From: a phage
DNA: 64,000 nt
Assembly: GCA_012416205.1 (NCBI GenBank)
Contig: GCA_012416205.1_3033.2
Strand: one strand, 5' to 3'
Position numbers and translations under genes: made by a program. The notes beneath the pieces were generated by a model that had not been told where the DNA came from, ran no database searches, and saw only the letters and a list, made by a program, of their open reading frames with translations. The stretch's first letter is position 1. Every line of letters starts with the position of its first letter. This document shows, one piece after another, positions 51,979 through 58,536 of the stretch.

Positions 51979-53094
51979 ATGGAAAAATTTATGGCAGAGT
52001 TTGGACAAGGATATGTCCAAACGCCATTTTTATCGGAAAGCAATTCAGTAAGATATAAAATAAGCATAGCGGGTTCTTGCCCGCTTTCTACAGCAGGACC
52101 ATACGTTAAATTTCAGGATAATCCTGTAGGAAGTCAAACATTTAGCGCAGGCCTTCATTTAAGAGTTTTTGACCCTTCCACCGGAGCATTAGTTGATAGT
52201 AAGTCATATGCTTTTTCTACTTCAAATGATACTACATCTGCTGCCTTTGTTAGTTTCATGAATTCTTTTTCAAGCAATAGACTTGTTGCTATATTAACTA
52301 ACGGAAAGGTTAATTTTCCTCCTGAAGTAGTATCTTGGTTAAGAACAGCAGGAACGTCTGCTTTTCCATCTGACTCTGTATTGTCAAGATTCGACGTATC
52401 ATATGCTGCTTTTTATACTTCTTCTAAAAGAGCTATTGCATTAGAGCATGTTAAACTGAGTAATAGAAAAAGCACAGATGATTATCAAACTATTTTAGAT
52501 GTTGTATTTGACAGTTTAGAAGACGTCGGAGCTACCGGGTTTCCAAGAAGAACGTATGAAAGCGTTGAGCAATTTATGTCAGCGGTTGGTGGAACTAATA
52601 ACGAAATTGCCCGTCTACCTACAGCATCTGCAATAAGTAAACTTTCTGACTATAATTTAATTCCTGGAGATGTTCTTTATCTTAAAGCACAACTATATGC
52701 TGACGCTGATTTATTAGCGTTGGGAACTACTAATATTTCAATTCGTTTTTATAATGCGTCGAATGGATATATTTCCTCGACACAAGCTGAGTTTACTGGA
52801 CAGGCTGGGTCTTGGGAATTAAAGGAAGACTATGTAGTTGTTCCAGAAAATGCAGTTGGATTTACGATATATGCACAGAGAACTGCTCAAGCGGGACAAG
52901 GCGGTATGCGAAATTTAAGCTTTTCTGAAGTATCAAGAAATGGCGGAATTTCAAAACCTGCTGAATTTGGCGTCAATGGTATTCGTGTTAATTATATTTG
53001 TGAATCTGCTTCACCTCCGGATATAATGGTACTTCCTACGCAAGCATCGTCTAAAACTGGTAAAGTGTTTGGGCAAGAATTTAGAGAAGTATAA
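51979..53094 (+). CDS. 35: Long tail fibre hinge protein gp35
   Basis: 371 aa, follows gp34. Confidence 0.88.
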   Translation: MEKFMAEFGQGYVQTPFLSESNSVRYKISIAGSCPLSTAGPYVKFQDNPVGSQTFSAGLHLRVFDPSTGALVDSKSYAFSTSNDTTSAAFVSFMNSFSSNRLVAILTNGKVNFPPEVVSWLRTAGTSAFPSDSVLSRFDVSYAAFYTSSKRAIALEHVKLSNRKSTDDYQTILDVVFDSLEDVGATGFPRRTYESVEQFMSAVGGTNNEIARLPTASAISKLSDYNLIPGDVLYLKAQLYADADLLALGTTNISIRFYNASNGYISSTQAEFTGQAGSWELKEDYVVVPENAVGFTIYAQRTAQAGQGGMRNLSFSEVSRNGGISKPAEFGVNGIRVNYICESASPPDIMVLPTQASSKTGKVFGQEFREV

Positions 53095-53099
53095 ATTGA

Positions 53100-53117
53100 G
53101 GGAGCCTTCGGGTTCCC
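53100..53117 (+). terminator. Hairpin GGGAGCC-TTCG-GGTTCCC after gene 35
   Basis: 7-bp stem (one G-U pair) with TTCG loop followed by a T-run. Confidence 0.5.
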
Positions 53118-53125
53118 TTTTTCTT

Positions 53126-53156: not shown

Positions 53157-53819
53157 ATGGCTGATTTAAAAGTAGGTTCAACAACCGGAGGCTCTGTCAT
53201 TTGGCATCAAGGAAATTTTCCATTGAATCCAGCCGGTGACGATGTACTCTATAAATCATTTAAAATATATTCAGAATATAATAAACCGCAGGCAGCTGAT
53301 AACGATTTCGTTTCTAAAGCTAATGGTGGTACTTACGCCGCGACTGTTCGATTTAATGGAGGAGTACATGTTCCTACTATAGGTAGTAGTCAACAGTGCG
53401 GTGTTTATCCAGGTAACGGTGATGCAGCTACCTTTGCTATGGCAAATATTGATATTGTTTCGTGGAATGGTATTGGTTTTAAATCATCACAAGGTTCAGC
53501 AGACCGAACTGTTGTAATTAATGCACGTAATGGTGATATTAGTACAAAAGGCGTTATGACAGCAGTAGGTCAAATAAGAAGTAATGCAGTTGCTCCTATA
53601 GCAGCGAATGACCTTACTAGAAAGGACTATGTTGATGGAGCAATAAATACTGTTACAGCAAATGCGAACTCTAGGGTGCTACGATCTGGTGACACCATGA
53701 CAGGTAATTTAACCGCGCCAAACTTTTTCTCGCAGAATCCTGCATCTCAACCTTCACATGTTCCACGATTTGACCAAATCGTAATTAAGGATTCTGTTCA
53801 AGATTTCGGCTATTATTAA
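53157..53819 (+). CDS. 36: Long tail fibre distal connector gp36
   Basis: 220 aa, T4 gp36 length and position. Confidence 0.88.
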
Positions 53820-53827
53820 GAGGACTT

Positions 53828-56800
53828 ATGGCTACTTTAAAACAAATACAATTTAAAAGAAGCAAAACTGCAGGTCAACGTCCTGCTGCTTCAGTATTAG
53901 CCGAAGGTGAATTGGCTATAAACTTAAAAGACCGTACTCTTTTTACTAAAGATGACTCGGGAAATATTATTGATTTAAGCATTACCGCTGGCGGTAATAT
54001 TAGTGGAAATATCACTCAAACTGGCGATTATACACAGACTGGAAAATTTAATTTAATTGGTCCGCAAATTGTAGCAAGCGGTGGATATATTGAGTTTAAT
54101 TATCGTACTACTGGAAGTGGGGCTTGGTCTGGTCAACACACTGCAAAAGCTCCAATTTTTGTAGATTTAAGCTCAGCTACTTCCACATCTGAATATAATC
54201 CTATAATTAAACAGCGCTTTAAAGATGGAACTTTTTCATTAGGTACTTTAGTTTCTGAAGGTTCGTTGAAGATTCATTATATCAATGAATCTGGCGATTC
54301 GAAATATTGGACGTTTCGACGTGACGGCGGATTTGTTGTTGACGGTGGAGGTTTAGCAGTATCAGGAGGTAGTATAACTACATCTGGAAATATTGCAGCT
54401 CTCGGAAATATTACTTCGCCTCAGATTAATACTAAAAATATTATTTTAGATACAAAAGCATTTGGACAATACGATTCGCAATCATTAGTTCAATATGTTT
54501 ATCCTGGAACAGGTGAAGAAAATGGTATAAACTATCTTCGTAAAGTTCGAGCTAAATCAGGCGGAAGCATTTACCATGAAATCGCTTCAGCTCAAACCGG
54601 TAAAAATGATGAAATTTCTTGGTGGACCGGAAATACACTTACTACTAAATTAATGGGTCTTCGTAATGATGGCGCAATGGTATTACGTCGTTCACTTGCT
54701 ATTGGCACAATTACCACTGACGAAAATACTAACAACTATGGTTCTCCTACTCCAATGGGAGAAAGATATATTGCTTTGGGCGATGCTGCCACTGGTTTAA
54801 AATACATTAAGCAGGGTGTTTATGATTTAGTAGGTAATTGGAATTCTGTTGCTTCTATTACTCCTGATAGTTTCCGTAGTACTCGTAAAGCGTTATTTGG
54901 ACGTTCAGAAGACCAAGGCGGAACCTGGACAATGCCTGGAACGAACGCTGCCTTTTTATCAGTTCAAACACAGGCTGATGAAAACACTGCTGGAGACGGC
55001 CAGACGCATATTGGCTATAACTCAGGCGGAAAAATGAACCACTATTTCCGTGGTAAAGGCAAAACTAATATTAATACTCAGGAAGGTATGGAAGTTAATC
55101 CGGGTATTTTGAAATTGGTAACTGGCTCTAATAACGTACAGTTTTATGCCGACGGAACAGTATCTTCAATACAAAGAATTAAATTTGATAACGGATTAGT
55201 TCTTACTGGTGCTAGACCCGACGGTATTCAACTTGACGCTCCTACAGCAACAGATGGCACTAAAACTATATTGTGGGCCGGCGGTACTCGCCCAGGTCAG
55301 AATAAAAGTTATCTATCTATCAAAGCATGGGGTAATGCCTTTAATGCATCTGGCGATCGTGCTCGTGAAACAGTTTTTGAAGTATCAGATGGACAAGGTT
55401 ACCATTTTTATTCTCAACGAGTTGCTCCCGGATCAGGTTCTACCGTCGGACCTATTCAATTTCGAGTTAATGGTGGTTTATTAACTTCTGGTGGTATTAC
55501 ATCATCTGGTTCTATTGTTACTGAATCAAGTTTAGTTGCAAATAATGGATTATCTGTAAATGGTCAGGCTAAATTCGGTGGAACGGCAGATGCATTAAGA
55601 ATTTGGAATGCCGAATACGGTGCTATTTTCCGTCGCTCAGAAACAGCATTGCATATTATCCCGACTCCTAAAGATGCCGGTGAAAGTGGTGGAATAAGTA
55701 ATCTCCGCCCGTTAAGTATTAGTCTTAATAATGGTATGGTACAAATGCGCCATTCTGTTACGTTAGGCGATGATGGCGCTGGCGGTAATATGATTACTGT
55801 GGACAACGATACCAAACTTGTTGTTGTTACTAGTAATAGTCGTATTTCTCCTAATTTCAGAATGCAATTAGGACAAAATTCTTATATAGATATCGAGGCT
55901 TCTGATGGCGTTCGCCCAGCAGGGTGTGGTTCATTTGCATCCCAGAATGACGTAAACGTCAGAGCTCCAATTTATATGAATATAGAGCGTACTGCTGCTT
56001 CTGAATATATCCCTATTATCAAACAACGTTACGTACAAGGTGATAGTACTTATTCTATTGGTACCTTAATTTCTCAAGGAGACTTCCGTGTCCATTATCA
56101 CCAGGGTACTAGTACTACCGGAACTGATTTAAGCTGGGAATTCCGTCGAAATGGTGATTTCCGCGCGACAGGTAAAATTATTGCCGGTGCTGCTACTTTT
56201 GGCACTGATGGCAATATTACGGGTGGTTCAGGAAACTTTGCTAACTTAAACAGTACAATTGAATCACTTAAAACTGATATTGTTTCAAGTTATCCTATTG
56301 GAGCTCCAATTCCATGGCCAACGGATACTCCTCCTGACGGTTACGCTATTATGGAAGGTCAGACTTTTGATAAGTCTGCATATCCAAAGCTAGCTGTTGC
56401 ATATCCTAGCGGTGTTATTCCAGATATGCGCGGGCAGACTATCAAGGGTAAACCAAGCGGTCGTGATGTTTTGAGCGCAGAAGCAGACGGTGTTAAGGCT
56501 CATAACCATAGTGCATCGGCTTCAAGTACTGACTTAGGCACTAAAACCACGTCAAGTTTTGATTATGGTACTAAGACAACAAGTAGCTTCGACTATGGTA
56601 CTAAGACCAGCAATACCACTGGTGACCATGCTCATAATAGAGGTAACATGGAAATTTCTGGTGTGTTTGGTTGGTTCAGAAGTGATAGTAGTGCATTCTA
56701 CACTGCTAGTGGTGCATTCGTGATGGGTAGTAGTCAGGGTTCACATGGTTTCACAGGTTCTAACTTCACTAATGGTGCTCCTGTTGATTTTCGCGCGTCA

Positions 56801-57007
56801 AGAACTTGGACAGGTGTAACCAACACGACAGGTAAGCATGCTCATACCGTAGGTATTGGTGCTCACACACATACCGTAGGTATTGGTGCTCACACGCACT
56901 CAGTAGCAATTGGTTCGCACGGTCATACTATCACTGTAAATAGTACAGGTAATACAGAAAACACAGTTAAAAACATTGCTTTTAACTACATCGTTCGTTT
57001 AGCATAA
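53828..57007 (+). CDS. 37: Long tail fibre distal subunit gp37 (receptor-binding tip)
   Basis: 1059 aa; C-terminal [10 protein letters not shown] repeats and HxH boxes ([31 protein letters not shown]) as in the T4 gp37 needle domain. Confidence 0.93.
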
Positions 57008-57012
57008 GGAGA

Positions 57013-57026
57013 GGGGCTTCGGCCCC
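57013..57026 (+). terminator. Hairpin GGGGC-TTCG-GCCCC after gene 37
   Basis: Perfect 5-bp GC stem with TTCG loop followed by a T-run. Confidence 0.55.
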
Positions 57027-57034
57027 TTCTAAAT

Positions 57035-57586
57035 ATGAAAATATATCATTATTATTTTGACACTAAAGAATTTTACAAAGAAGAAAATTACAAACCGGTT
57101 AAAGGACTCGGTCTTCCTGCTCATTCAACAATTAAAAAACCTTTAGAACCTAAAGAAGGATACGCAGTTGTATTTGATGAACGTACTCAAGATTGGATTT
57201 ATGAAGAAGACCATCGCGGCAAACGAGCATGGACTTTTAATAAAGAAGAAATTTTTATAAGTGACATTGGAAGCCCGGTTGGTATAACCTTTGATGAGCC
57301 CGGCGAATTTGATATATGGACTGATGACGGTTGGAAAGAAGACGAAACATATAAACGCGTTTTAATTCGCAATAGAAAAATTGAAGAATTATACAAAGAA
57401 TTTCAAGTTTTAAATAATATGATTGAAGCTTCTGTCGCGAATAAAAAGGAAAAATTCTATTATAAAAACCTTAAGCGATTCTTTGCTCTTTTAGAAAAGC
57501 ATGAGCATTTAGGTGGTGAATTTCCCGCATGGCCTGAAAAAGAACGGAAACCTTGGTATAAGCGTTTATTCAAGCATTACGTATAA
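57035..57586 (+). CDS. 38: Tail fibre assembly chaperone gp38 (T4 type)
   Basis: 183 aa; recognisable T4 gp38 sequence starting MKIYHYYFDTKEFYKEENYKPVKGLGLPAH. Confidence 0.93.
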   Translation: MKIYHYYFDTKEFYKEENYKPVKGLGLPAHSTIKKPLEPKEGYAVVFDERTQDWIYEEDHRGKRAWTFNKEEIFISDIGSPVGITFDEPGEFDIWTDDGWKEDETYKRVLIRNRKIEELYKEFQVLNNMIEASVANKKEKFYYKNLKRFFALLEKHEHLGGEFPAWPEKERKPWYKRLFKHYV

Positions 57587-57606: not shown

Positions 57607-58263
57607 ATGGCAGCACCTAGAATATCATTTTCGCCCTCTGATATTCTGTTTGGTGTTCTAGATCGCTTGTTCAAAGATAACGCTACCGGGAAAGTTCTTG
57701 CTTCCCGGGTAGCTGTCGTAATTCTTTTATTTATGATGGCGATTGTTTGGTATAGGGGAGATAGTTTCTTTGAGTACTATAAGCAATCAAAGTATGAAAC
57801 ATACAGTGAAATTATTGAAAAGGAAAGAAATGCACGCTTTGAATCTGTCGCCCTGGAACAACTCCAGATAGTTCATATATCATCTGAGGCAGACTTTAGT
57901 GCGGTGTATTCTTTCCGCCCTAAAAACTTAAACTATTTTGTTGATATTATAGCATACGAAGGAAGATTACCTTCAACAATAACTGAAAAATCACTTGGAG
58001 GATATCCTGTTGATAAAACTATGGATGAATATACAGTTCATTTAAATGGACGTCATTATTATTCCAACTCAAAATTTGCTTTTTTACCAACTAAAAAGCC
58101 TACTCCCGAAATAAACTACATGTACAGTTGTCCATATTTTAATTTGGATAATATCTATGCTGGAACGATAACCATGTACTGGTATAGAAATGATCATATA
58201 AGTAATGACCGCCTTGAATCAATATGTGCTCAGGCGGCCAGAATATTAGGAAGGGCTAAATAA
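57607..58263 (+). CDS. t: Holin T
   Basis: 218 aa (T4 holin length); single N-terminal TM segment and large periplasmic domain; follows gene 38. Confidence 0.9.
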   Translation: MAAPRISFSPSDILFGVLDRLFKDNATGKVLASRVAVVILLFMMAIVWYRGDSFFEYYKQSKYETYSEIIEKERNARFESVALEQLQIVHISSEADFSAVYSFRPKNLNYFVDIIAYEGRLPSTITEKSLGGYPVDKTMDEYTVHLNGRHYYSNSKFAFLPTKKPTPEINYMYSCPYFNLDNIYAGTITMYWYRNDHISNDRLESICAQAARILGRAK

Positions 58264-58536
58264 TTATTTGTTCGTATACATCTCTAGATATCGATATACA
58301 CCCTCAAAACCCTCGTTGAATTCGTCGATGAGGGTTTTCTTATCTTCTTGAGTTAATTCAGAAACAATTTTACGGAATGAATTCTGATTTAATTTTCTAC
58401 CTTCATGCGTTACTCCAATCTCATTCAGAAATGCAATAAAATTAGCACGATTTTCAACAATATCTTCTCTGGAAAATTTAATCAAAATAGACGCAACAGT
58501 AATAATTTCACGAACTGTATCAATGTTTTTATTCAT
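58264..58536 (-). CDS. asiA: Anti-sigma-70 factor AsiA
   Basis: 90 aa; recognisable AsiA sequence MNKNIDTVREIITVASILIKFSRED. Confidence 0.95.
   Translation of the reverse strand: MNKNIDTVREIITVASILIKFSREDIVENRANFIAFLNEIGVTHEGRKLNQNSFRKIVSELTQEDKKTLIDEFNEGFEGVYRYLEMYTNK

Follow-up and report, generated by a model that had tools for sequence, protein, structure and literature searches.

The window, a stretch of 64,000 nucleotides of phage DNA (contig GCA_012416205.1_3033.2 of the NCBI GenBank assembly GCA_012416205.1), contains a tail-fibre block that follows phage T4 in gene order and products (genes 34-38, t and asiA). We analysed the 3' end of its gene 37, which encodes the distal subunit of the long tail fibre, gp37. 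An earlier note, made from the letters of this DNA, had flagged the interval 56530-56935, which falls within the final 160 codons of gene 37, as a repeat-rich tip with histidine boxes (His boxes, HxH). We read it with good confidence as the needle and head (domain D11) of the distal long-tail-fibre protein of a T4-like phage, the repeats corresponding to paired rungs of the needle and the head to an exchanged cassette. This head cassette, shared with fibres of Felix-O1-like phages and of prophages, is the noteworthy feature of the tip.

The assignment to the C-terminal tip of gp37, already proposed in the earlier note, was borne out by homology. The last 262 residues of gp37 match the T4 tip 2XGF in two stretches located on either side of a non-matching middle (phmmer against 2xgf_A, E 1e-92), and the Pfam domain Collar was detected with an E value of 2.8e-11. 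The entry 2XGF is reportedly the structure of the T4 gp37 receptor-binding tip of Bartual et al., dated 2010. The T4 domain D10 comprises residues 811-881 and 1010-1026, and D11, corresponding to the needle and the tip, residues 882-1009; the HxH motifs of the T4 tip hold seven irons (PMC6957217). Overall, the tip encoded in the window is an ordinary member of the gp37 family with its collar, needle and head, accompanied by a T4 chaperone. The parts of the tip and the neighbouring genes are described in Table 1.

Table 1. Features of the gene 37 tip and of the surrounding tail-fibre block (positions in the window)
Feature	Position	Strand	Basis or remark
Collar domain (T4 D10 equivalent), gp37 residues 825-872	56300-56443	+	Pfam PF07484 Collar, E 2.8e-11; near-identical to 2XGF residues
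His box 1, HNH, residues 892-894, foot of the ascending strand	56501-56509	+	Aligned to T4 H883/H885
Repeat array of the ascending strand, 3 x 30 nt	56531-56620	+	TRF period 30; units read in frame
His box 2, HAH, residues 934-936, left border of the head cassette	56627-56635	+	S1P5QW and TuIb similarity stops at 56636
Head cassette, residues 937-1003, presumed receptor-binding knob, not T4-like	56636-56836	+	Unalignable with T4; tblastn and SP22 DNA match
His-box array of the descending strand (HAH, HTH, HTH, HGH), spacing 9 residues	56837-56926	+	Holds the 27-nt tandem units
C-terminal strand returning to the collar	56927-57004	+	Identical to T4 gp37 residues 1001-1026
Gene 37-38 junction: AAGGAG, hairpin GGGGC-UUCG-GCCCC, gene 38 AUG	57006-57034	+	Fold -15.6 kcal/mol, z -2.3
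Gene 37, distal long-tail-fibre subunit, mosaic gene	53828-57007	+	Open reading frame, 1059 residues
Gene 38, T4-type tail-fibre assembly chaperone	57035-57586	+	Open reading frame, 183 residues
Gene 34	48101-51970
Gene 35	51979-53094
Terminator-like hairpin 3' of gene 35	53098-53119	+	GAGGGAGCC-TTCG-GGTTCCCTT, then a T run
Gene 36	53157-53819
Holin gene t	57607-58263
Terminator-like hairpin 3' of the holin gene	58306-58338	+	Yet inside convergent asiA (3' part of its coding sequence)
asiA		-

HxH boxes of the T4 type, announced in the earlier note, are indeed present; there are six, at gp37 residues 892, 934, 1004, 1013, 1022 and 1031, two on the ascending and four on the descending side of the head. 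T4 gp37 has seven, at positions 883, 915, 929, 966, 980, 989 and 998, in agreement with the residues H929/H931 of PMC6957217. In the ascending array the program Tandem Repeats Finder (TRF) detected, over 56540-56609, a period of 30 with 2.3 copies and 75% matches. Read in frame, this array consists of three 30-nt units with DNA identities between units of only 17-21/30 (57-70%), which points to an old repeat retained at the protein level. For the descending array, TRF gave a period of 27, 2.0 copies, 100% matches and a score of 106. The direct 26-bp repeat claimed there is real and lies exactly at the coordinates given for it (56843-56868 and 56870-56895); an exact tandem repeat of 26 nt is far beyond chance in 64 kb. 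Taken as 27-nt units (56843-56869 and 56870-56896), the two copies share 26 of 27 positions, the sole mismatch being the last base, and a third, degenerate unit (17/27) at 56897-56923 encodes HSVAIGSHG. This repeat is not private to the phage of the window, since two 27-nt units are found at the same place in related phages, with inter-copy identities of 24/27 in TuIb (X55191; Montag et al. 1990), 25/27 in CJY920 (PQ349265) and 21/27 in Mosigvirus vB_EcoM-ZQ3 (MW630116, hereafter ZQ3).

The head located between His boxes 2 and 3 (56637-56836, about 67 codons) could not be aligned with T4 gp37: its extent from His box to His box is 70 residues against 37 in T4, and the sequences are unrelated. 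T4 DNA matches the window only at 56209-56575 and 56876-57040; the match of TuIb DNA ends at 56636 and resumes at 56804. The closest genome, vB_EcoM-S1P5QW (OL956808, hereafter S1P5QW), is 93.6% identical up to 56636 and 96.2% identical from 56837, its sole discontinuity with the window being the cassette between the GDHAH and GKHAH codons. Searching with the head segment by tblastn, we recovered 60 phage records with identities of up to 91%. Among the matches listed, most belong to Ounavirinae (Felixounavirus SP22, EC6, wV8 and HY02, and Mooglevirus Sf14), the only T-evens being CJY920 and ZQ3. At the DNA level, the interval 56588-56867 is 88.2% identical to the long-tail-fibre gene of SP22 over 280 nt without gaps, and the similarity to SP22 is restricted to this interval, the remainder of gene 37 being that of a T-even phage.

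The module extending from His box to His box, boxes included, measures exactly 73 residues, without indels, in 28/28 sequences. Its identity to the window is 90% in SP22, 85% in EC6, 81% in Sf14, 71% in wV8 and 67-74% in prophage fibres. Two head subtypes could be separated, the window and CJY920 grouping with SP22 (90-97%) and ZQ3 with wV8 (90%); the identity between the window and ZQ3 is 73%. The head is also present in 15 of 5426 complete Escherichia coli genomes. Prophages of IMG/VR that possess it encode either a short fibre beside baseplate-like genes and a Tfa protein or an Stf-like fibre of 915 residues followed by Tfa. No copy of the head was found in the species-representative bacterial genomes scanned, all matches being at most 42% identical and limited to the stems. 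Two protein database searches were unusable as a census: the one with the 66 residues of the head returned 2 short matches only, and the one with 180 residues of the needle listed only proteins of up to 315 residues, 3 of them sharing the head.

We propose that the head is a portable cassette delimited by His-box codons, which would have been exchanged with Felixounavirus-type or prophage-type fibres through homologous recombination between the conserved stem sequences on either side of it. The stem blocks 56588-56636 and 56804-56867 are common to all lineages and would provide the homology for this recombination. A cassette swapped by recombination within conserved motifs would be expected to leave break points at the two His boxes, and this is precisely where the similarity to S1P5QW is interrupted. 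Since the T-even heads fall in two subtypes of Ounavirinae, at least 2 separate exchanges would have occurred between T-evens and Ounavirinae. Tetart and Krisch are said to have proposed a recombination mechanism of this kind for the adhesins of T-even phages. Such a mechanism also agrees with the capacity of the lambda Stf C-terminus to replace functionally the receptor-recognising part of T4 gp37, as recorded for Montag 1989 in the reference listing of PMC13517834.

The likeness of the heads might instead reflect the ancient common descent of all gp37-type tips, without any lateral exchange of cassettes. Consistent with this, these phage groups have the whole collar-needle-head architecture in common (PMC12609058), and conserved stems are found in each. 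Such a descent would nevertheless have to account for 88% DNA identity over 280 nt across virus families that show no other detectable similarity in these genes, for a sharp break with the nearest T-even genome at the His boxes, for T-even heads split between two different Ounavirinae subtypes, and for a head that, in 60 phage records, is confirmed in only 3 T-evens. We consider it highly improbable, and retain the exchange of a cassette as the origin of the head.

Two observations were made on the borders and composition of the cassette in other phages. In its second ascending unit, CJY920 (locus L002) encodes SSSF with the SP22-like codons TCT TCA TCA TTT, against T-even-like codons in the window (56576-56590); the Ounavirinae-like tract consequently has a different left break point in CJY920 and in the window. 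In a lambdoid prophage Stf gene (locus L016, 1158-3905), the head cassette has a G+C content (GC) of 40.8% inside a gene of 51.8% GC, which suggests from composition that the cassette may be foreign there and may come from an AT-richer source, such as a virulent phage.

The lengths of the two stems were then compared between fibres, each stem being measured in residues between its first and last His boxes and the ascending length being given before the descending one. In the T-evens sharing the head (n=3), the stems are 42/27, with 3 DxGTK units, 4 descending His boxes and a gp38 gene downstream. They are 32/18 in the prophage fibres sharing it (n=16; 2 DxGTK units, 3 descending His boxes, Tfa downstream) and 24/9 in the long fibres of Ounavirinae (n=9; 1 DxGTK unit, 2 descending His boxes, no chaperone gene found downstream). 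Copy number varies between these fibre classes solely as matched pairs, with 10 more residues in the ascending stem and 9 more in the descending one. The T4 stems, 46/32, read as 32/18 plus a distal rung of 14/14, and those of TuIb and S1P5QW, 56/41, as 42/27 plus the same distal rung as in T4. Over seven length classes, the ascending length exceeds the descending one by a constant 14-15 residues, the values 46/32, 56/41 and 59/45 having been obtained by automatic assignment of the head to the largest gap. The rule by which the largest gap between HxH boxes is the head was itself rejected, as it misassigns fibres having small heads; because of these misassignments, the paired-length claim rests on the 28 sequences with homologous heads together with T4, S1P5QW and TuIb.

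By likeness to 2XGF, the chain would climb the needle through His box 1, three DxGTKTxxxx units and His box 2, build the head of 67 residues, then descend via four His boxes spaced 9 residues apart and reach the collar. The two arrays would be antiparallel partner strands forming opposite faces of the same rungs, each ascending unit of 10 residues pairing with a descending His-box unit of 9 residues, and the stems of 42/27 have, as indirect evidence at the level of sequence, the matched lengths that a hairpin topology would give. As in T4, each HxH box would form one octahedral metal site of the trimer, to which every chain contributes two histidines, and the predicted number of metal sites is six here versus seven in T4. 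A change in a single array would shift the strands of the needle out of register, so that copy number could change only in matched pairs.

The earlier note had also expected a region prone to slippage and to host-range variation. According to this explanation, the tandem DNA repeats would form a contingency region in which units are gained or lost, by slippage or unequal crossing-over, to yield host-range variants. Adjacent 27-nt units identical at 26 of 27 positions are indeed a substrate for slippage. A difference from T4 in repeat number, which the earlier note had made a condition of its reading, was also found on alignment, T4 having one unit fewer in each array (two against three in the phage of the window). 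Tetart et al. reportedly described in 1996 (J Mol Biol 258:726) T4 host-range mutants in which this region of gene 37 contained duplications. Against these points, the five T-evens that have this type of stem (window, TuIb, S1P5QW, CJY920 and ZQ3) do not differ in copy number even though the copies have diverged (21-26/27) and the phages were sampled decades apart, TuIb having been deposited in 1990. The same units in the same number in TuIb, S1P5QW, CJY920 and ZQ3, with inter-copy identities of 21-25/27, indicate that the duplication is old and stable. The ascending units, at 57-70% DNA identity, are poor slippage substrates, and all length differences are matched on both strands, which one slippage event cannot produce. 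No change confined to one array was found among the fibres compared. The expectation of a slippage-driven host-range switch was thus not upheld, and we judge it improbable; the repeats are better read as paired rungs.

The fibres related to the tip of the window differ from it mainly by their rungs and heads. The T4 tip has the same collar domain, both strands of the needle, HxH boxes, an identical C-terminus of 26 residues and the gp38 gene directly downstream. Where T4 has seven HxH, two proximal rungs and a distal 14/14 rung, the window has six, three and none, respectively. TuIb and S1P5QW possess all three DxGTK units and the same 27-nt His-box units, and their DNA is 88-96% identical to the window up to 56636 and from 56804/56837 on. 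They differ by the extra distal rung (56/41, eight HxH) and by a small, unrelated head. Among deposited T-evens, the same stems, the same arrangement of the head and a gp38 chaperone were found together in CJY920 and ZQ3 only. ZQ3 however carries the wV8 subtype of the head, and in CJY920 most of the remaining gp37 differs, with an SP22-like tract that reaches further 5'.

Outside T-evens, the long fibre of the wV8-species Felixounavirus phages (SP22, EC6, wV8 and HY02) and of Mooglevirus Sf14 shares the head cassette and the adjoining stem blocks FDYGTKT...TTGxHAH and HxHxVGIGAHxH. Outside these shared parts the protein is unrelated to T-even gp37; its needle has a single rung (24/9, four HxH), and no chaperone gene lies downstream (PMC11821841). 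A collar, needle and head of the T4 gp37 type with HxH motifs have been described in Ounavirinae fibres (PMC12609058, PMC4690856). The shorter fibre of Ounavirinae (about 391-397 residues), encoded by the open reading frame upstream of the long fibre (loci L005-L008, L012 and L013), has nine HxH and stems of 59/45, and its needle exceeds in length the one that the same phage has on its long fibre (24/9, four boxes). The E. coli prophage fibres, either lambdoid of the Stf type (L016) or short and Mu/P2-like (L009), share the head type, the collar, the stems and an adjoining gp38/Tfa-like chaperone gene. They differ in having two rungs (32/18, five HxH), a temperate context and a chaperone start that overlaps the stop codon of the fibre gene. 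In addition, identical matches at 38% identity were retrieved from unrelated bacterial assemblies (Chromatium, Leeuwenhoekiella, Pseudomonas, Neobacillus, Paenibacillus, Kitasatospora, Bradyrhizobium and others; loci L093-L107 and L136), several of them on contigs of about 48.4-48.5 kb with a coverage near 1. Rather than resident prophages, these look like contamination by phage lambda, the stf gene of which encodes a gp37-type tip.

Downstream of gene 37, the product of gene 38 is, as the earlier note had stated, the chaperone of 183 residues of the T4 type and not an adhesin of the T2 type: 181/183 residues are identical to T4 gp38, and the protein belongs to the same 90% cluster as TFA_BPT4. 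No Pfam match was obtained for gp38. As gp38 is a T4-type chaperone, the adhesin must lie in gp37, and the placing of receptor recognition in gp37 could be maintained, gp38 being 99% identical to the T4 chaperone. In the mechanism we propose, the head and not gp38 would carry receptor specificity, gp38 acting as a folding chaperone only. Since gp38 is near-identical to that of T4 despite an unrelated head, its target is presumably the conserved collar and stems, unless the type of head makes no difference to it. Gene 38 begins 27 nt past the stop codon of gene 37; the AAGGAG motif sits 24 nt from its AUG, with the hairpin in between. We take this junction to resemble the split ribosome-binding site of T4 gene 38, in which the hairpin would bring the Shine-Dalgarno sequence closer to the AUG.

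The head being unrelated to that of T4, the receptor is probably not bound in the way T4 binds OmpC. The T4 head (residues ~932-965) has mapped contacts with OmpC and lipopolysaccharide (LPS), the receptor contacts lying at residues 933-953 (PMC6957217), and the head of the window is not homologous to it. The phages possessing the head of the window were isolated mostly on O157:H7, other Shiga toxin-producing E. coli (STEC) and Shigella flexneri (60 tblastn records). Hosts of these three kinds are reported to share the R3 type of LPS core. Felixounaviruses are reported to depend on LPS, and more precisely on its core (PMC8594841), not on an outer-membrane protein (PMC8594841, PMC4690856). These elements can be assembled into a tentative scenario, which we put somewhat below even chances: the head of 73 residues would be a portable cassette moving among virulent T-evens, virulent Ounavirinae and temperate E. 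coli phages by His-box recombination, working on one to three rungs with or without a chaperone, and in the phage of the window it would retarget the fibre from OmpC to the LPS core as found on O157:H7, other STEC and S. flexneri.

It is also possible, if doubtful, that the head is just another allele of the OmpC-binding tip of the T4 type. The phage would then use OmpC, and LPS glucose if OmpC is absent, like T4, TuIb and the OmpC-dependent T-evens of BASEL that possess a chaperone-type gp38. The original side tail fibre of lambda, which has a gp37-type tip, uses OmpC, and this speaks for such an allele. Its size does not, as the head is about twice as long as in T4 (70 vs 37 residues) and cannot be aligned with it. 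Nor is there in the head any counterpart of the T4 contacts I933, N937, G938, G940, G942, G943, S947 and Y949 (PMC6957217). Moreover, the head has its 90% relatives in Ounavirinae, for which dependence on LPS and not on outer-membrane proteins has been reported (PMC8594841, PMC4690856), and most hosts of the 60 phages in which it occurs are O157:H7, other STEC and S. flexneri. As a guess, we would give the LPS core a little less than an even chance of being the receptor and OmpC or another porin a somewhat smaller one, something else being unlikely. The LPS-binding T4-like phage PSD2001 (PMC12323348) was considered and set aside as not being of the same type, its gp37 C-terminus being 16% like that of T4.

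Several points weigh against the reading of the tip as a needle of paired rungs bearing an exchanged, LPS-directed head. Metal binding, the pairing of rungs and the count of six sites are predicted from likeness to 2XGF. An AlphaFold2 monomer model, built from an alignment of 62 sequences, was set aside with a mean predicted local distance difference score (pLDDT) of 58.6 and a predicted template modelling score (pTM) of 0.23. Counts of informative sites could not narrow the crossovers beyond the blocks 56588-56636 and 56804-56867. The GC content, 44.5% in the cassette and 44.4% in the T4 tip, gives no clue to the donor or to the direction of transfer. Concerning the receptor, a literature search found no determination for the long tail fibres of the SP22/wV8 type, for ZQ3 or for CJY920. 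Two fibres exist in Ounavirinae, and either may be the LPS binder. Finally, other gp37-type tips bind OmpC: in published screens it is the receptor of T-evens in which the C-terminus of gp37 has the receptor-binding function, and these OmpC-binding T-evens vary widely in their tips (PMC8594841; bioRxiv 10.64898/2026.04.02.716166).

Over its full length, gp37 shares 58% identity with T4 gp37. An identical protein is deposited as EFD8933508.1, alone in its 90% cluster. The first 673 nt of gene 37 (53828-54500) are 96.7% identical to T2 and 100% identical to Shigella phage SHBML-50-1; with such a T2-like and not T4-like N-terminus, gene 37 is a mosaic. An insert in the N-terminal part of gp37 (residues ~95-180, 54110-54397) is paralogous to residues ~690-790 of the same protein (55895-56197), with 39% identity, an E value of 4e-20 and the common motif EYxPIIKQR...GTL...HY...W.FRR.G.F.

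It was already known that tail fibres are mosaic, that His boxes serve as recombination points, that HxH motifs bind metal and that gp38 is a chaperone. The present comparison adds rules for gp37-type tips, which consist of a collar, a number n of matched rungs, a distal rung that may be absent and, between His boxes, a head cassette. The natural cut sites are fixed within a few codons (56636 and 56837) and are usable for the engineering of host range: a cassette of 200 nt could be transferred between the fibres of T4-like phages, Felix-O1-like phages and prophages. The presence of a chaperone-type gp38 is not in itself a predictor of OmpC use, and the type of head should guide the prediction of receptors in T-even phages with such a gp38.

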